The translations under genes and the position numbers were made by a program. Below the pieces are notes generated by a model. The model had not been told where the DNA came from and ran no database searches. It saw only the letters and a program-made list of their open reading frames with translations. Shown in pieces: positions 5,169-13,712 of a stretch of 43,938 nt of DNA. The DNA lies in NCBI GenBank assembly GCA_040879805.1, contig JBBDJP010000005.1, forward strand, positions 1 to 43,938, written 5' to 3'. Every line of letters begins with the position of its first letter. The first letter of the stretch is position 1. This DNA is from Candidatus Pacearchaeota archaeon (lineage in GTDB: Archaea > Nanobdellota > Nanobdellia > Pacearchaeales > GW2011-AR1).

Positions 5169-6050
5169 ATGAATATTGGAAAAATAAAATCTGATAAGAC
5201 CATTAAAGAATTACTTGAGTTTGGAATAATAAATATTGATAAGCCTTCAGGACCAACATCATTTAATGTTTCTGATTTTGTTAGGAGAAAACTAGATTTG
5301 AGAAAAACTTCACACTTTGGGACATTGGATCCAAAAGTTACCGGAGTTTTACCAATAGCATTAAACAGGGCGTGCAAACTTACAGGATTTTTTTTAGGTG
5401 AAGATAAAGAATATGTTGGGGTAATGAGTGTTCATGAAAAAATTGATAAAAAGACTATTGAAAAAATTATTAAAGAAAACTTTATGGGAAAAATAACTCA
5501 ACTTCCACCTGTAAAATCAAGAGTTAAAAGGCAGGAAAGAGTTAGAGAAATAAAATCTTTTAAAATTTTAGAACAAGAAGATAAAAATTTTCTTTTTAAA
5601 GTTGAGTGTGAAGGTGGGACTTACATAAGAAAACTTGTACATGATTTGGGTGAAGAATTGGGAACTGGTGCACACATGTTGGAACTTCGAAGAATAAGGG
5701 CAGGGATCTTTAAAGAAGATGGAAAAAAATATCCTTCTGTGAATCTTTATGATTTTGAAAAAGCTGTTGAAGAATATGAAAAAGGGAATGAAAAACTCTT
5801 AAGAAAAATTGTAATTCCTGGTGAGATTGTCTCTGAATTATATCCTGCCGTTCAGGTTAAAAAAAATTATATGGGTAAATTGTTCAATGGAAGCCCTTTA
5901 CATAAAAAATATATTAAAGACAAAAAACTAGATTTGGAAGGAGAGAAGTTTTGTGCTTTCTCAAATAACAAATTTATTGGAGTTTATAGAAGAACATTGG
6001 AAAAAGAAATTCTTGGGAGACCTTTATTTGTCTTGCAGCCTTTGGTTTAA
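5169..6050 (+). CDS. truB: RNA-guided/tRNA pseudouridine synthase Cbf5 (TruB family)
   Basis: IDKPSGPTS, catalytic HFGTLDPKVTGVL, CEGGTYIRKL, LRRIRAG. Confidence 0.95.
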   Translation: MNIGKIKSDKTIKELLEFGIINIDKPSGPTSFNVSDFVRRKLDLRKTSHFGTLDPKVTGVLPIALNRACKLTGFFLGEDKEYVGVMSVHEKIDKKTIEKIIKENFMGKITQLPPVKSRVKRQERVREIKSFKILEQEDKNFLFKVECEGGTYIRKLVHDLGEELGTGAHMLELRRIRAGIFKEDGKKYPSVNLYDFEKAVEEYEKGNEKLLRKIVIPGEIVSELYPAVQVKKNYMGKLFNGSPLHKKYIKDKKLDLEGEKFCAFSNNKFIGVYRRTLEKEILGRPLFVLQPLV

Positions 6051-6132
6051 CATCGCGATTAAGAGAAGTTTGGCGTAGGCGAATTTTGGGAAATTTTCTG
6101 CAAGAAAATTTACCTCTTAATCGCTGTTATAC
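6045..6132 (-). other. Integron attC-like recombination site (88 bp)
   Basis: Minus strand reads GTATAAC-a-gcgattaagag...ctcttaatcgc-gat-GTTAAAC: R''/R' boxes, a perfect 11-bp inverted repeat (6055-6065/6114-6124), an asymmetric spacer and an internal hairpin (6091-6111). Confidence 0.7.
6046..6069. repeat. 24-bp direct repeat, copy 1 (tttaacatcgcgattaagagaagt)
   Basis: Exact match to 9977-10000; contains the truB stop codon. Confidence 0.97.
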
Positions 6133-6309
6133 GCGTCTGCTAAGACCGAACCATAGTCTGCAAGACGGTTTTTTGCGAAGCAAAAAAAATGGCGAAGAGT
6201 TAAATTTTCACGATAATAAATTTCGACCGTAGGAAGTGTATGTCCGAAGGACGAGGAGGCTTTTTTGTTTCTTTTTCTAAAGATATGCTTTAGATCAAAC
6301 CGAAACATA

Positions 6310-6334
6310 TTTAAATATCGGCATATAACGATAT
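6310..6334 (+). promoter_or_regulatory. ars promoter TATA box with ArsR-type operator
   Basis: TTTAAATA (6310-6317) overlapped by the inverted repeat ATATCG-N8-CGATAT (6315-6334), just upstream of the arsR ATG. Confidence 0.65.
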
Positions 6335-6337
6335 ATT

Positions 6338-6622
6338 ATGATTGATAAAAATATAAAATTATTATATGCTCTTAGTAATGAAACAAGAATAGAAATTTTG
6401 CAATATTTGCTTAATAGAGAATTATGTGCTTGTTCTATTCATCCTTTTATTGGAAAAGCTCAATCAACCATTTCGGGGCATTTAAAAATATTGGAAGAAG
6501 CAGGAATAATTGAATCCAAAAGGGTAGGGGTAAACATTTGGTACAGAATTAAAAGTAAAAAAGCTATACAGATTATGAAGATTCTAGGTATTCAAAAAAT
6601 TGAAAATAAAATAAATTGCTGA
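6338..6622 (+). CDS. arsR: ArsR/SmtB arsenic-responsive repressor
   Basis: ALSNETRIEIL, ELCAC metal site, QSTISGHLKIL HTH. Confidence 0.93.
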   Translation: MIDKNIKLLYALSNETRIEILQYLLNRELCACSIHPFIGKAQSTISGHLKILEEAGIIESKRVGVNIWYRIKSKKAIQIMKILGIQKIENKINC

Positions 6623-6631
6623 GGCATTAAT

Positions 6632-6955
6632 ATGGTAAAAGATAATTTAACTATTTATGAAGGAGTAATGTGTTGTCAAACGGGTTTATGTGGACCAGAA
6701 CCAGATAAAACCCTTATAGATCTAAATGAAACACTAAAAAAATTACAAAATGAATTTAGTGATTTAGAAATAAATAGGGCAAATATAACACACAACCTAA
6801 ATATGTTTTTAGAGAATAAAGAGATCTTCCAATTAGTTAAGGAAAAGGGGCAAGAAATTCTTCCAATCACTACTATTAATGGAAAAATTATTGCCAATCA
6901 AAAATATCTGAAATATGATGAAGTAAAAGAAATAATTAAGGAGACAAAAAAATGA
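6632..6955 (+). CDS. arsD: Arsenite metallochaperone ArsD
   Basis: IYEGVMCCQTGLCGP, LPITTING. Confidence 0.93.
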   Translation: MVKDNLTIYEGVMCCQTGLCGPEPDKTLIDLNETLKKLQNEFSDLEINRANITHNLNMFLENKEIFQLVKEKGQEILPITTINGKIIANQKYLKYDEVKEIIKETKK

Positions 6956-8796
6956 AAAATTTAAGCAAATTCATAAAACCTATTGCAGAAAACGAGACAA
7001 AATTCATATTCTTTAGTGGTAAAGGAGGGGTTGGAAAAAGTACAATGAGTTGTTCAACTGCTGTCTGGCTTGCTAATCAAGGATATAAAACTTTACTTGT
7101 GACAACTGATCCTGCACCAAATTTATCAGACATATTCGATCAAGAAATAGGCCATAGAGTGACTAAAATAAACAATATTCAAAATCTATCTGCTATAGAA
7201 ATCGACCCTGATGTTGCATCACAGGAATATAGGGAAAAAATAATGGCTCCGATGAGAAAATTATTGGATGAGAAAGATATCAAAATAGTAAACGAACAAT
7301 TGAACAGCCCTTGCGTTGAAGAAATTGCGGCTTTTGACAAATTTATAGAATTTATGGATAAACCAGACTATGATGTTGTGATATTTGATACAGCGCCAAC
7401 AGGACATACAATAAGATTATTAGAGCTTCCCTCTGGATGGAATGAATCGTTAAAAGGAGATTCTGCAACATGTATTGGTCCTAGTGCTTCACTACAAGAT
7501 GCAAAAGCGAGATATGAAAAAGCGATTTCGTATTTGCAAGATGAACAAAAAACCTCTTTTGTTTTTGTGTTAAAGCCAGAAAATTCTAGTGTGCTTGAAG
7601 TTGAAAGAAGTTCAGGAGAACTTGAAAAACTAGGTATAAATACCACTTTTTCTATAGTGAATGGGTTACTTCCTAATAATGCAATTACAGATGAATTCCT
7701 AAAGAAAAGAAAAGAGCAAGAGAACGCAGTCATTGAAAATATCAAAAATTCTTTTAAGACTCCTTTATTTTTTTATCCTCTTAAAGATTCTGAAGTTTCT
7801 GGATTAAAGTTGTTGGAATCAGTTGGAGATTTTTTGTATGAAGGAAAAGAAGAAGAAAATAGCGAGCCAAAACAGATTACTAAAGAAACAGAAGTTACGT
7901 TCGACAATAATCTTAAGGAAATACTCCCTGTACTTACTCCGTTAAGAGATAAAAGATATGTCTTTTTTACAGGCAAAGGAGGGGTTGGAAAAAGTACTGT
8001 TGCGTGTACAACTTCAGTATATATGGCTGAAAAAGGGTTAAAAACATTAATTGTAACGACTGATCCTGCATCTCATCTGCACGACATTTTTGGACAAGAA
8101 ATAAATCACGAACCAACTAAGATTAGAGCTGTGGATAATTTATTTGCTGCAAGAATTGATCAGAAGAAAGCATTAGAGGAATACAAAAAAAGAATTTTAG
8201 AAGCAGTAAAAGACAAGGACGAAGAAACAAAGAAATCTGTTGAGGAAGATTTAAACTCTCCGTGTGCTGAAGAAATGGCTGCGTTTGAGAAATTTATGAG
8301 TTATTTTGAAATCGAAGGATACGAAGTAATTATTTTTGATACAGCGCCAACAGGACACACTCTAAGGCTTTTGGAGCTTCCTTCTGATTGGAAAGGGTTT
8401 GTTGATTTAGGAACATTAACAAAGAATACATCTGGAGAGACTATGAGCAAGTACTCTAATGTTATAGATACTATGCGAAATAAGGACAAAAGTTCATTCA
8501 TTTTTGTGATGTATCCAGAGTACACGCCGATAATTGAAGCATGGCGTGCATCTGAGGACTTGAAAAAACAAGTCGGAATTGAAACAGCAGCTGTCGCAGT
8601 AAACAATCTGATTTCTCCACATTGGGGGCAAAACTCTTTCTTTAATAATCGAAGAATCCAACAATCCAAATACTTACAACTCATAAAAGAGAAGTTTGAA
8701 ATCCCCTCAATTTTTATTTCTTTACAAGAGGATGAACCAAAAGGAATTGATAATCTAAAGAGGCTTGGAAAAAATATTTTCGGAGGGCAAAAATGA
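6952..8796 (+). CDS. arsA: Arsenite-activated ATPase ArsA (two nucleotide-binding domains)
   Basis: Two GKGGVGKS and two DTAPTGHT motifs; metal-binding Cys in SPCVEE, ATCIGP and SPCAEE. Confidence 0.96.
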   Translation: MKNLSKFIKPIAENETKFIFFSGKGGVGKSTMSCSTAVWLANQGYKTLLVTTDPAPNLSDIFDQEIGHRVTKINNIQNLSAIEIDPDVASQEYREKIMAPMRKLLDEKDIKIVNEQLNSPCVEEIAAFDKFIEFMDKPDYDVVIFDTAPTGHTIRLLELPSGWNESLKGDSATCIGPSASLQDAKARYEKAISYLQDEQKTSFVFVLKPENSSVLEVERSSGELEKLGINTTFSIVNGLLPNNAITDEFLKKRKEQENAVIENIKNSFKTPLFFYPLKDSEVSGLKLLESVGDFLYEGKEEENSEPKQITKETEVTFDNNLKEILPVLTPLRDKRYVFFTGKGGVGKSTVACTTSVYMAEKGLKTLIVTTDPASHLHDIFGQEINHEPTKIRAVDNLFAARIDQKKALEEYKKRILEAVKDKDEETKKSVEEDLNSPCAEEMAAFEKFMSYFEIEGYEVIIFDTAPTGHTLRLLELPSDWKGFVDLGTLTKNTSGETMSKYSNVIDTMRNKDKSSFIFVMYPEYTPIIEAWRASEDLKKQVGIETAAVAVNNLISPHWGQNSFFNNRRIQQSKYLQLIKEKFEIPSIFISLQEDEPKGIDNLKRLGKNIFGGQK

Positions 8797-9131
8797 GAGA
8801 AAAAACACCTATGGAATTACTTAAGGAGATAGCTCCAGAATTTGCTCAAAGCCAGATGAATGATAAAAAAACTCTTTTTGATGATGAGAAATATCAACAA
8901 ATACCTAAAAAGTATAAATTTCTTATAGGTCTTGCAACAGCTGCAGCATTAGGTTCTGACATGTGTACAAGAATGTGGACAAAACAGGCAATTGCTTCAG
9001 GTGCAAACAAATCAGAAGTGACAGAAGCAATGATGGTTGCAAGATTTTTAAAACAGGCAACAGTCAACGATACTATTGCAAGTTCCATTGAGAAGTTCAT
9101 TTTACAGGATGAAGGAGAAAAAAATGAATGA
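8793..9131 (+). CDS. Carboxymuconolactone decarboxylase/AhpD-like protein
   Basis: IPKKYKFLIGLA...C...A...GANKSEVTEA pattern; a single Cys rather than CxxC. Confidence 0.75.
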   Translation: MREKTPMELLKEIAPEFAQSQMNDKKTLFDDEKYQQIPKKYKFLIGLATAAALGSDMCTRMWTKQAIASGANKSEVTEAMMVARFLKQATVNDTIASSIEKFILQDEGEKNE

Positions 9132-9468
9132 AGAAATAAAAAATAAAACAAAAGAGTTTGCACAGGCAATTTTAGAAAGCGAAGAGTATAAAACATTTAT
9201 ATCTGTCTCAGATGATTTAAAAAAAAGTGAAGATTCAAATTTATTAAAAGAGTTCCAAAATAAACAAATGGAATTACGGCGGAAAGGATTTGATCCTTCG
9301 CTAATGGAAGAACTAAGAGAATTGCAAACAAAAATAAATAAGAGTGAAACAATACAACAATTTGCCAAAACTCAAAATGAATTGGTTGATTTATTAAAAA
9401 GAACAAATAACCTTATTAGCTTAAGAATAAATATGCCTTTTGTAAGTGCTATGAGAGGTGGTTGCTGA
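9124..9468 (+). CDS. YlbF-family helical protein ending in RGGC
   Basis: EFAQAILESEEYK N-terminus, coiled-coil body; start moved to ATG 9124. Confidence 0.7.
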   Translation: MNEEIKNKTKEFAQAILESEEYKTFISVSDDLKKSEDSNLLKEFQNKQMELRRKGFDPSLMEELRELQTKINKSETIQQFAKTQNELVDLLKRTNNLISLRINMPFVSAMRGGC

Positions 9469-9671
9469 TGAATGGAAAAAATCCTTCAAATCAACATGCA
9501 ATAATAAAAGCAAAAGAACTTGCTGAAGCAATCAAAAATAGTGAAGAATTTAAAGATGGCGATGTTGTTGCATTGCAAAGCGTTCTTACAAAATGTAATA
9601 GAATAATTAGTGAGAGTATCAAAATTAATTATGAAGCAGTTTGCCAACCAAGAGGAGGCTGTTGTGGTTAA
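9468..9671 (+). CDS. Short YlbF-like protein ending in RGGCCG
   Basis: AKELAEAIKNSEEF resembles the N-terminus of the preceding protein; TGATG overlap coupling. Confidence 0.65.
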   Translation: MNGKNPSNQHAIIKAKELAEAIKNSEEFKDGDVVALQSVLTKCNRIISESIKINYEAVCQPRGGCCG

Positions 9672-9675
9672 AAAA

Positions 9676-9873
9676 ATGGGTTTATTTTCATTATTCAAGG
9701 AAAAAGAAAAAGTGTTGCAGTGCGATTGGTGTAAAAACGAAATAGATACTCCTTCCTATACCAAAGTTTTTGGTAATACTAAATATGGATTTTGTTCTGA
9801 TTCCTGTAAGCAAAATTTTAGAAGCTGGTTTAAAAAAATGCGTTCTTGCGGGCCAAGTTGTGCTTGTCATTGA
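9676..9873 (+). CDS. Small TRASH/YHS-like metal-binding protein with CGPSCACH tail
   Basis: CDWC...YGFCSDSC; start moved to ATG 9676. Confidence 0.7.
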   Translation: MGLFSLFKEKEKVLQCDWCKNEIDTPSYTKVFGNTKYGFCSDSCKQNFRSWFKKMRSCGPSCACH

Positions 9874-9976
9874 ATATTAATATTTCTCATAAAGTGAGAC
9901 AATATGTGCGTAGCACCTGGACTCCCCCTCTTTTGCTTCTTTTTCTAAAAGAAGAGAGAACTTAAACACAATTGAA

Positions 9977-10000
9977 TTTAACATCGCGATTAAGAGAAGT
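9977..10000. repeat. 24-bp direct repeat, copy 2 (attC right half only)
   Basis: Identical to 6046-6069; no complementary arm found in 10000-10115. Confidence 0.97.
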
Positions 10001-10115
10001 GACAATCCCTCCAAAAATTTTTCGGGCATTCAGATATAAAAACCACGCAAATCTACACACAAATTTCACAAGCATCAATCAAAAATGTTAAAAGCCCTTT
10101 AGACAATATTAATTT

Positions 10116-10700
10116 ATGAGACACTTCGTTTATTTTTCATCAACAGCACAAACTTCAGGAAAAGCACTTTCAAAAAAAGATTTGATGAAAGCTGGAAGAA
10201 TAGATATTGCAATCCATACTATAATAAATTCATTTTTTATTTCAAACAAACTCAGAGATGATGTTGTTCTTCATCTTATTTTTTACGGAATGCCTGACCC
10301 TCCAAAGCACATAGAACTTCATATTAAACCTGAAACTGAATTAAGTAAAAAAGATATTGGAACTTTGTTAAAAAAAATTCTTTACAAATACCAAGAAGGT
10401 AGGAAAAATGAGGTTCATCCAGGATGTTTTGTAGAGAAAAAAAGTTTTCTTAATGTGATTGAAGAACTTAGAGATGAAGATAGAGAAATCTTCATTTTGG
10501 ATGAAGGGGGTGAAGAACTTAGAGAAGTTAAAATCCCTGAGGGAAGTGTTTTTGTTCTTGGGGATCAAAACGGACTTCCAAAAAAAGAGTTAAAAAGACT
10601 GAAAAAGAATTGTAAGGTTGTCTCTGTAGGTCCCGAAATCTATTTTGCAAGCCAGGTTGTAACAATAATAAATAACGAATTAGATTTGAGAAAAATTTGA
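10116..10700 (+). CDS. trmY: tRNA pseudouridine-N1 methyltransferase TrmY (SPOUT)
   Basis: GRIDI, SFFISNKLRDDVVLHL, PDPPK, FVLGDQNGL, SVGPEIYFASQ. Confidence 0.85.
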   Translation: MRHFVYFSSTAQTSGKALSKKDLMKAGRIDIAIHTIINSFFISNKLRDDVVLHLIFYGMPDPPKHIELHIKPETELSKKDIGTLLKKILYKYQEGRKNEVHPGCFVEKKSFLNVIEELRDEDREIFILDEGGEELREVKIPEGSVFVLGDQNGLPKKELKRLKKNCKVVSVGPEIYFASQVVTIINNELDLRKI

Positions 10701-13526: not shown

Positions 13527-13712
13527 ATGGGATTAGTAGTCAAATCAAATATACGGAAAGTTGTAAAAGAAATTGATAAAGAGAACTCTATTTCCAGTGT
13601 TGCTGAAGAAGTTGGTAGAGCCCTTGAAAGAAAAGTAGAAGATATTTTGGGAGATGCGATTAAGAGGGCAAAAGAAAATGGAAGAAGAACTTTACAAGCT
13701 AGAGACTTGTAA
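13527..13712 (+). CDS. Short histone-fold protein (DUF1931/Bd0055-like)
   Basis: LVVKSNIR...RAKENGRRTLQARDL, with the histone RxT and RD clamp. Confidence 0.85.
   Translation: MGLVVKSNIRKVVKEIDKENSISSVAEEVGRALERKVEDILGDAIKRAKENGRRTLQARDL

Follow-up and report, generated by a model that had tools for sequence, protein, structure and literature searches.

The attC sites of integrons are fold-back sites with structure-conserved arms (reviewed in PMC8946536). They reach into the archaea, where 75 of 6718 genomes carry integrons and where CALINs (clusters of attC sites lacking integron integrases), defined as two or more attC sites spaced by less than 4 kb without a nearby intI, are also found (Ghaly et al. 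2022, PMC9668308). Here we analyse a stretch of 43,938 nucleotides (nt) from a Candidatus Pacearchaeota archaeon (contig JBBDJP010000005.1 of assembly GCA_040879805.1; the whole stretch is called the window) in which an arsenic resistance (ars) operon stands between truB and trmY, and we suggest, with a probability that we put at roughly 70% from sequence comparison, that positions 6046-10119 are the decayed one-cassette remnant of an integron-like gene-capture platform. Several other systems are relevant to this reading. The superintegrons of Vibrio carry species-specific attC sites, the VCRs (Vibrio cholerae repeats), which are used by IntIA. At the attP of CTX-phi with XerCD and in integrative mobile elements exploiting Xer (IMEX), which have no integrase of their own, a Xer recombinase acts on a hairpin of two inverted half-sites. 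The pdif modules of Acinetobacter plasmids hold resistance genes between inverted 28-bp double-stranded sites bound by the housekeeping XerC/D, and in archaea a single housekeeping XerA acts on a 28-bp dif site composed of two inverted 11-bp arms and a 6-bp spacer. Elements of the Sulfolobus spindle-shaped virus (SSV) type have the att core inside int, with int(N) and int(C) lying inside the repeat-bounded element.

The source assembly (G000; other G numbers denote the genomes of relatives, C numbers contigs and L numbers fetched loci) comprises 406 kb in six contigs and is 73% complete; its sequence is contained in the runs SRR27977663 and SRR27977659. The original prediction had read the ars genes of the window as a cassette enclosed by an imperfect palindrome and an exact 24-bp repeat, and both are confirmed in the sequence. 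The palindrome (site A) is 87 nt long (6046-6132); its arm GCGATTAAGAG (6055-6065) pairs with CTCTTAATCGC (6114-6124), both are nested in TTTAAC (6046-6051) and GTTATA (6126-6131), and the minus strand reads GTATAAC-a-GCGATTAAGAG...CTCTTAATCGC-gat-GTTAAAC. Whether treated as RNA or as DNA, the stretch folds far better than shuffled sequence (z = -5.0 to -5.3; 0 of 200 shuffles equally good). The direct repeat TTTAACATCGCGATTAAGAGAAGT occupies 6046-6069 and 9977-10000 with 100% identity and encloses seven genes: arsR, arsD, arsA, a CMD-family gene, two YlbF-like genes and a TRASH-domain gene, with truB on the left and trmY on the right. The TAA stop of truB (6048-6050) overlaps the first bases of site A, where the original prediction had it supply the outer R core. 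The full site A and a truncated site B are 3931 nt apart, with a recombinase stump adjoining the latter. Logan contigs from two runs independently assemble both junctions (L048 from truB through site A to arsD; L046 and L047 from the right repeat to trmY), so the junctions are not artefacts of the G000 assembly. No third copy of the 24-nt repeat was found in the 406-kb assembly; a 17-mer searched with 0 or 2 mismatches occurs only twice in G000, and the 11-mer has a fourth copy, at 13656, which falls within coding sequence and is a chance match. When both flanks were compared with G000 by short-word BLAST, only low-complexity matches and one 19-nt promoter-like match on C1 emerged. Two other structural readings of site A were rejected. 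An H/ACA guide RNA beside cbf5/truB does not fit a hairpin that has neither a pseudouridylation pocket nor an ACA box, and an outer inverted repeat (6030-6047/6149-6166, 16 of 18 positions complementary to the truB 3' end) was treated as coincidental, since 6149-6166 belongs to a family-conserved tail that is present at loci without truB.

The right-hand repeat had been taken for a duplicated half of the palindrome, and the locus for one without an integrase; neither view stands. Past the 24 nt the sequence reads GACAATCCCTCCAAAAATTT, which corresponds to the first strand of hairpin 1 in a site subtype found complete in L239, L190, L059, L157 and others; the repeat is thus the 5' part of a second, different and truncated site (site B), which is directly followed by a tyrosine recombinase stump of 38 codons. 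The stump matches the profiles TIGR02249 (E 8e-9) and XerA (E 5e-7), and its stop overlaps the trmY start codon (ATGA). In sequence it is nearly identical to the array-linked enzymes of L247 and L123; the XerA of G000 itself is less similar. Homology to sites covers 9980-10023 (L190) and homology to integrases 10012-10113 (L247, L123, L239); the 12-nt overlap of site- and integrase-derived DNA at 10012-10023 is the signature of a microhomology deletion. This deletion appears to span about 1 kb, with the loss of the remaining part of site B, of the int-proximal site and of about 240 recombinase codons; by fusing site B to the last 38 codons of the gene, it would have left a platform no longer able to act alone. 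We considered an SSV-type split integrase and rejected it, as the fragment lies outside the repeats and its homology starts at the microhomology junction; in the frame of the stump, the right repeat contains three stop codons.

Site A belongs to a large and apparently undescribed family of sites. Its members share the order AAC-ATC-L''(11 nt)-AAGT-hairpin 1-ATTTGG-hairpin 2-L'(11 nt)-T-GTTA, followed by a conserved tail of about 150 nt, which makes the unit larger than attC; over about 157 nt, positions 6125-6281 of the window are 83-90% identical to the tails in L141, L118, L139, L086, L281 and L150, all of which have other cargo. The 20-mer AACATCGCGATTAAGAGAAG occurs exactly in at least 120 metagenome contigs and at least 120 genome contigs. 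By record label, in which binning errors are possible, the genome matches come from Woesearchaeota, Pacearchaeota, Nanoarchaeota, Methanosarcinales, Thermoplasmatales and bacteria of the candidate phyla radiation (CPR), and a 171-kb Parcubacteria contig with three sites is among the genome matches listed. Viral contigs, plasmids and phages gave 0 matches to the site sequence. The loci that we fetched were chosen by one 20-mer, a sample biased toward one L-box type. A covariance model built from the aligned sites (R1) matches 12 of 42 genomes of the genus and 62 of 151 sampled genomes of the phylum (41%), the latter from 55 of 119 genera. Site A, itself part of the training set, scores 77.9 bits on the plus strand and 33.6 bits on the minus strand. 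Two further full sites in G000 (C6, 31703-32505), absent from the training set, score 63.8 and 35 bits; they are 690 nt apart, flank a 150-aa acetyltransferase gene on the opposite strand, lie between genes for a PCMT-like methyltransferase and SMC, and carry the L boxes AGAGATAAAAG/CGGTTATCACT and GGCATTAACAG/CTGTTAATGCC, with no recombinase gene nearby. Searches of the genome, one of the checks suggested in the original prediction, returned no IntI and no third 24-mer, but they did return the Xer-like stump and, with model R1, these two sites. Our searches of the literature turned up no account of the site sequence, nor of any Xer-linked cassette system in DPANN or CPR.

The structure of the sites is conserved where their sequence is not. 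In a search anchored only on AACATC...AAG and ...GTT, 286 of 386 AACATC-N11-AAG motifs are followed by the complementary 11-mer and then GTT, and there are dozens of distinct L'' words (GGAATTTAACG, AGGATTATGAG, GCAACTATGCG, GGCATTAACAG and others), each with a perfect partner. Counted on the plus strand, the L-box pairs comprise 750 Watson-Crick, 61 G·T, 7 A·C and 73 other pairs; the excess of G·T over A·C identifies the plus strand as the one that folds. RNAalifold reports compensatory changes in both inner hairpins. Loops on the plus strand are overwhelmingly GNA triloops: C-GNA-G is counted 122 times and T-GNA-A 136 times, where shuffles give 29 and 46 and the minus strand gives 20 and 23. 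Neither GNRA nor UNCG loops show enrichment. As GCGNAGC is the classic hyper-stable DNA mini-hairpin (PMC13037366), the GNA triloops would favour folded DNA over RNA. AAC and GTT are invariant across the aligned members, the three bases beyond them fit RRRY/RYYY only loosely, and the spacer is asymmetric (ATC versus T), giving a 2-nt bulge on the 5' arm that is presumably the equivalent of the extrahelical bases of attC. The proposal that site A is an attC therefore holds in part: the AAC/GTT R box, covarying L box, asymmetric spacer and variable interior agree with it, but the conserved tail of about 150 nt and the conserved primary sequence do not. Collapsed sites are also seen (L307 at about 4905, 9134 and 10903; L199 at about 1233), in which AACATC and TGTTA are retained but L'' is cut to 4 nt and L' to 2-4 nt (for example, AACATCAGGA|TCCTTGTTA). 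Such sites are scars of hairpin deletion or else a minimal working form of the site.

Intact loci place the sites in arrays beside a recombinase gene. The sites of the fetched loci form 81 same-strand arrays, each with 2-8 members, in which neighbouring sites are a median of 1153 bp apart; 75 of 125 intersite intervals hold one open reading frame (ORF) by crude ORF calls. A tyrosine recombinase gene is present in 21 loci, with the sites upstream on the same strand in 20 of them (30 of 33 sites), and the linked enzymes have 267-290 aa. Five of them score 227-246 bits on the NCBIfam XerA model NF040815 (cut-off 220) and 197-209 bits on the integron integrase model TIGR02249 (cut-off 265); the latter is matched in two pieces that skip the extra-domain region, so the IntI-specific domain is missing. 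The linked recombinases are thus XerA-type and not of the integron family as defined, contrary to the trans-mobilisation by IntI that had been envisaged. Each of the 12 genomes examined that carry such a linked gene has 2-4 XerA-like genes. A maximum-likelihood tree separates the two kinds of copy along a branch with 93/89 support: 20 of the 22 array-linked copies group on one side and 12 of the 13 unlinked ones on the other. The lone unlinked copy within the array-linked group stands 277 nt from the end of its contig, so that its label is provisional. The linkage label changes 3 times on the tree versus 10.7 times in shuffles. (The score on the XerA profile was tried as a marker of linkage and given up as inconsistent in favour of the tree.) The linked recombinases thus form a clade of XerA paralogues and are not IntI. 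Most of their genes have a simpler site, ATTGnnnTWAAC-AT plus a 12-14-nt palindrome, 60-110 nt upstream of the start codon, and we regard this int-proximal AAC-AT-palindrome as the candidate counterpart of attI. The only intact XerA of G000, on contig C2, falls among the unlinked copies.

The position of the crossover is indicated by comparisons among other loci. L283 and L199 share their left flank as far as ...ATAAC and then diverge into a full site and a collapsed palindrome, respectively; L183 and L289 likewise share ...ATAAC and then diverge into a full site and an int-proximal site, and the identity among L059, L258 and L149 begins at AAC. Junctions at this point agree with the crossover of integrons, which lies at AA|C on the strand that folds and at G|TT on the opposite one. 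We propose that the plus strand, which is also the recombinase-sense strand, would fold such that AAC pairs with GTT (R box) and the 11-nt arm with its complement (L box), leaving the 2-nt bulge between the boxes and two covarying GNA-loop hairpins inside, and that by analogy with IntI the XerA paralogue would cut this folded single-stranded DNA at AA|C. Intact platforms would thus be same-strand site arrays with cargo, ending beside the 5' end of a dedicated XerA-paralogue gene. In the window, an AA|C crossover would define a cassette of 3931 nt (6051-9981), as predicted, with the truB TAA supplied by the bases left of the cut. The junction of the excised circle should read ...ATTGAATTTAA|CATCGCGATTAAG... 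(|CATCGCG...), and the empty allele truB...GGTTTAA|CATCGCGATTAAGAGAAGTGACAATCC. The ars operon would be the only cargo in the remnant, lying on the folding strand between sites A and B with a promoter region apparently of its own and, as had been noted, opposite to the canonical direction of a cassette. More generally, we lean towards the view that the sites and the XerA-paralogue clade constitute a second, independently evolved, structure-specific cassette platform ('Xer-type integrons') that pervades DPANN and, by record labels, extends to CPR bacteria and Methanosarcinales, moving whole operons, possibly across domains.

The most informative comparison for the cargo itself is L307, a contig from the European Nucleotide Archive whose ArsA is 95% identical to that of the window. 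Its ars unit matches 6258-6928 at 88.8% and 6939-9941 at 94.5% identity and lies between two family sites in the same orientation, with a restriction-modification cassette and a third site next to it; L307 is a second, independent array carrying the same ars operon as cargo. The two ars cassettes do not share their sites, however. Several observations weigh against our interpretation, and this is the first of them: the hairpin and tail (6051-6257) are not common to the window and L307, where the sites are collapsed forms (AACATC-GGGC/CC-TTGTTA) with a different tail, and tail A accompanies other cargo elsewhere. Site and cargo thus assort independently, unlike a classical attC with its gene, and capture through a G|TT crossover, which the AA|C junctions of other loci match, is only a candidate route for the ars cassette. 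Further, there are hybrid sites joined within the hairpin (L139 and L124, for example), cargo shows almost no orientation bias (118:91, from the same crude ORF calls), related ars operons in G004 and L308 have no flanking sites (G004 has its closest one at 2.5 kb), the primary sequence conserved in the family (AAGT, ATTTGGG and the long tail) exceeds the known needs of an attC and could serve RNA or another function, and no competent enzyme is evident in the 73%-complete G000, whose C2 XerA belongs to the unlinked, housekeeping-like clade.

The rival explanation that best accommodates these points, although we rate it as rather unlikely for the locus as a whole, is that homologous recombination or gene conversion between the T-rich modules at 6258-6283 and 9927-9955 brought the ars unit into an array already in place, with no site-specific step, the hairpin sites being neighbours with portable homology. 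The block common to the window and L307 indeed starts and ends in these T-rich palindromic modules and not at AAC, its homology running to 9941 and then across an indel into the palindrome. The two modules are alike (19 nt at 6263-6281 match 9931-9949 at 95%), the left junction of L307 has two of them in tandem where G000 has one, the hybrid sites point to recombination at several conserved points, and the cargo looks recent even though the local recombinase is dead. On the other hand, this explanation accounts neither for the covarying stems, the strand asymmetry and the fixed geometry relative to the recombinase nor for junctions exactly at AAC, and the donor may simply have had another type of hairpin and tail. 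From the alignments, either the hairpin and tail modules are swapped often or the cargo has been exchanged by homologous recombination across the T-rich modules. For the entry of the ars unit alone, we incline to a site-specific AA|C crossover, with homologous exchange across the T-rich end modules at slightly under even odds.

Could the units instead be structured-RNA genes or cis-elements (an insulator, a terminator or a small RNA) transcribed from the plus strand? The strong covariation, the G·U-type asymmetry on one strand, the conserved single-stranded motifs AAGT and AUUUGGG, the fold z-score of -5 and T-rich ends that could terminate archaeal transcription would all suit such a function. 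Yet Rfam 15 has no family matching 5950-6350 at E <= 10 (at gathering score the only match in the window is tRNA-Pro), the loops are of the DNA mini-hairpin type and not GNRA or UNCG, identity between loci breaks exactly at AAC, truncated and collapsed copies stand at rearrangement junctions, and the linkage to a tyrosine recombinase clade is tight and oriented. We therefore consider an RNA function improbable as the explanation of the family. An ordinary attC cassette or CALIN mobilised in trans by IntI is less probable still, despite R boxes resembling RYYYAAC/GTTRRRY, the imperfect palindrome, the existence of archaeal CALINs (PMC9668308) and a stump whose best NCBIfam E-value is to the integron-integrase model: every full-length linked recombinase is XerA-type and falls below the integron-integrase cut-off, a Pfam integrase search of G000 found no IntI, and the sites have a conserved 150-nt tail and conserved primary sequence. 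Their prevalence, 41% of the sampled genomes of the phylum against 75 of 6718 archaeal genomes, is also out of line with archaeal integrons, and the site sequence is absent from those supplementary files of PMC9668308 that were searched. That the sites are an abundant selfish element, akin to repetitive extragenic palindromes or miniature inverted-repeat transposable elements and unlinked to gene gain, would explain their great number and their frequent position at contig ends, but hardly their same-strand arrays with one or few ORFs between sites, their fixed geometry relative to a recombinase clade, or the variable cargo at conserved positions in relatives, and we give it very little weight. 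Least probable is a classical element integrated as a 3.9-kb circle through a 24-bp double-stranded att core at the truB stop (attL/attR, including an SSV-type version), which the exact 24-nt repeat around foreign-looking DNA and the adjoining integrase fragment might suggest, for what is repeated is the 5' part that is invariant in the family, here belonging to two different sites (the left complete, the right truncated and of another subtype), and the fragment stands outside the repeat-bounded segment and begins at the microhomology junction, not at an att core.

Our preferred reading, a decayed cassette platform, can also be set against the truB-trmY junction of relatives. The two genes are neighbours throughout the genus; in G004, G012, G016, G022 and G024 they are 2-8 bp apart, in G004 overlapping as ATGA, so the expectation that truB would almost adjoin trmY once the ars genes were removed is borne out in several relatives. 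Other species have other genes at this position (a Tag glycosylase in G017, thioredoxin and Tag in G007, a hydrolase in G020, two genes in G018), which makes the junction a hot spot for accessory DNA. The region upstream of trmY in G005 holds a site and cargo together with a degenerate AACAT site and a stump of the same type that has decayed further (...KNVKSPLDN); the shared design indicates that the platform predates the split of G005 and the window species. In G015 the truB-trmY gap of 135 bp retains only ATTGCAATTAACAT. The 1.7-kb insert of G018 (L043, G018:C5, 1602-1690/3249-3335) is flanked by a direct repeat of about 85 bp of the trmY start and encodes a 234-aa unknown protein and a C39-peptidase-like protein; neither a family site nor an integrase was seen in it, which points to a different insertion mechanism at the same junction. 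In G011 (C10, 6154-8382), the truB homologue is in two pieces (residues 3-169 and 149-292) within one 778-aa frame, which may reflect an intein or an inserted domain.

The features of the locus are collected in the following table.

Table. Coordinates of the ars cassette, its sites and its flanking genes (window positions).
Feature	Coordinates	Strand	Evidence and remarks
truB/cbf5 pseudouridine synthase	5169..6050	+	Pfam TruB_N, TruB_C_2, DKCLD; orthologues in 36 of 41 relatives
Site A, hairpin domain	6046..6132	+	Family anatomy, folding, model R1
Site A, layout of 5' part and interior			TTTAAC 6046-6051, ATC, L'' GCGATTAAGAG 6055-6065, AAGT, hairpin 1, ATTTTGGG, hairpin 2 (GCA triloop)
Site A, layout of 3' part			L' CTCTTAATCGC 6114-6124, T, R box GTTATAC 6126-6132; folding strand +
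Site A, tail	6133..6257	+	GNA-loop mini-hairpins gtct-GCTA-agac, gtct-GCA-agac, ttttttgc-GAA-gcaaaaaa, gtcc-GAA-ggac; 6133-6283 when the tail is counted more fully
T-rich palindromic module, left end of ars unit common with L307	6258..6283	+	Homology with L307 begins at 6258; putative terminator/insulator and possible exchange point
Putative ars promoter/operator region	6296..6337	+	Palindrome ATATTTAAATAT; block upstream of arsR conserved in G004 and L307
arsR	6338..6622	+	Pfam HTH_5, E 3e-15
arsD	6632..6955	+	Pfam ArsD, E 1.7e-26
arsA, two-domain ATPase	6952..8796	+	Pfam ArsA_ATPase, E 8e-159
CMD-family (AhpD-like) protein	8793..9131	+	Pfam CMD, E 1e-8
YlbF/YmcA-like protein	9124..9468	+	Pfam Com_YlbF, E 9e-15
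Small YlbF-like/DUF8067 protein	9468..9671	+	Weak Com_YlbF match; L307/L308 orthologue labelled DUF8067
TRASH-domain metal-binding protein	9676..9873	+	Pfam TRASH_HVO_1752_C, E 1e-7
Pre-site module, right end of ars unit common with L307	9892..9955	+	gtgc-GTA-gcac hairpin, C-run, T-rich palindrome TTCTTTT-TCT-AAAAGAA; family-conserved (L199 98% over 62 nt, L246 88%)
Site B, truncated	9977..10023	+	TTTAAC, ATC, L'' GCGATTAAGAG, AAGT, first strand of hairpin 1 ('GGCAATCCCTCC' subtype); remainder deleted
Tyrosine recombinase stump	10003..10119	+	38 codons QSLQKFFGHSDIKTTQIYTQISQASIKNVKSPLDNINL including catalytic-Tyr motif, and TGA; PF00589 match 10003-10068
trmY tRNA pseudouridine N1-methyltransferase	10116..10700	+	Pfam Methyltrn_RNA_2, E 6.5e-38; conserved truB neighbour in the genus

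The ars genes themselves have close relatives. The three closest homologues of ArsA are 95%, 95% and 90% identical. Its nearest relatives are archaeal, and the cross-domain origin that had been proposed as possible is not supported for the ars genes. Between G004 and the window, ArsA is 95% identical, compared with 70% for truB and 79% for trmY, which points to a recent transfer of the ars genes; the operon of G004 lies elsewhere in its genome, split over two contig ends. The operon is a mosaic, in that arsR and the promoter are about 72% identical to G004 and 89% to L307 and the portion from arsD onward is 93-95% identical among all three. In Logan, the unitigs of two runs end inside arsD (about 6715) and just past the TRASH stop (9880, 9926), breaks that fit the presence of the arsD-TRASH block in more than one genomic context within the same samples. 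Neither Acr3 (PF01758) nor ArsB (PF02040) was matched, as a pump gene, in the operon or in the 406-kb, 73%-complete G000; the related operon of L308 continues with arsR and an SBF/Acr3 gene and abuts sufBD. In G004 (L040, G004:C2, 4593-4870), a family site with its tail lies 2.5 kb from the ars operon; the interval contains thioredoxin-like, VKOR, ArsR-like and cyclophilin genes, and beyond it are genes for a C39-like peptidase and sufB. An exact-protein look-up of the TRASH protein found nothing. The 19-nt match on C1 mentioned above is an exact copy of part of the ars promoter block, CCGAAACATATTTAAATAT (G000:C1:165978-165996), directly upstream of the gene for a 193-aa membrane protein, and is probably a shared strong promoter motif.

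If our reading is correct, IntI integrons are not alone in capturing genes through folded single-stranded sites: a Xer-derived recombinase lineage runs a comparable cassette system in the smallest archaeal genomes known and, it appears, in bacteria of the CPR. This would supply a concrete mechanism for the heavy gene flux and the patchy accessory metabolism of these symbionts, and model R1 (AACATC-N11-AAGT...) would offer a new sequence handle on the mobile gene pool in metagenomes. The window would then be a natural experiment, in which a self-regulated multi-gene resistance operon is the cargo of a decaying platform at a core-gene junction that holds different cargo in sister species.

Compared with the arsRDA operons of bacteria and archaea, the cargo has ArsR, ArsD and a two-domain ArsA in the usual order, but CMD, YlbF-like and TRASH genes in place of an ArsB/Acr3 pump gene. 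The single XerA of archaea that acts on dif contrasts with the 2-4 XerA-like genes per genome (12 genomes) and the separate array-linked clade described here. No 11-6-11 dif-like core was recognised in the family sites or in site A read directly, and a dif-like reading of the 24-mer was set aside, since it offers only the mini-palindrome ATCGCGAT and no 11-6-11 layout. With CTX-phi/XerCD and IMEX our model shares a Xer-family recombinase acting on a one-strand hairpin and mobile DNA without an integrase gene of its own; it differs in having a dedicated paralogue beside the array instead of a housekeeping Xer at dif, and cassette arrays instead of one phage site. Like pdif modules, the sites bound small gene modules, including resistance genes, in varied contexts, but pdif sites lack a covarying fold-back structure, a dedicated adjacent recombinase and long same-strand arrays. 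Like the VCRs, they form long arrays with high mutual identity and the look of a repeat family, whereas an identical 20-mer is kept here across many genera and, by record labels, across archaeal and CPR bins. From integrons, the sites and their enzymes differ in several respects: the recombinase, of 267-290 aa, is a paralogue of XerA and lacks the IntI-specific domain; AACATC, AAGT, ATTTGGG, two inner hairpins and a tail of about 150 nt are conserved; hairpin and tail assort independently of cargo; cargo orientation is unbiased; the ars cassette has seven genes with what appears to be its own promoter region, whereas integron cassettes are mostly promoterless single ORFs; and the prevalence, about 41% of the sampled genomes of the phylum, is far above that of archaeal integrons. 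The likenesses to integrons are nonetheless extensive. Both have imperfect palindromes as sites, whose R boxes keep AAC...GTT invariant and whose L box is maintained through its structure, around a variable interior and with one strand carrying unpaired or, presumably, extrahelical bases; the folding strand is the recombinase-sense strand, and several junctions appear to fall at AA|C. In both, same-orientation arrays with mostly single-gene cargo stand beside the 5' end of a tyrosine recombinase gene, with a simpler site (here a candidate counterpart of attI) just upstream of it, and recombinase-less arrays are common.

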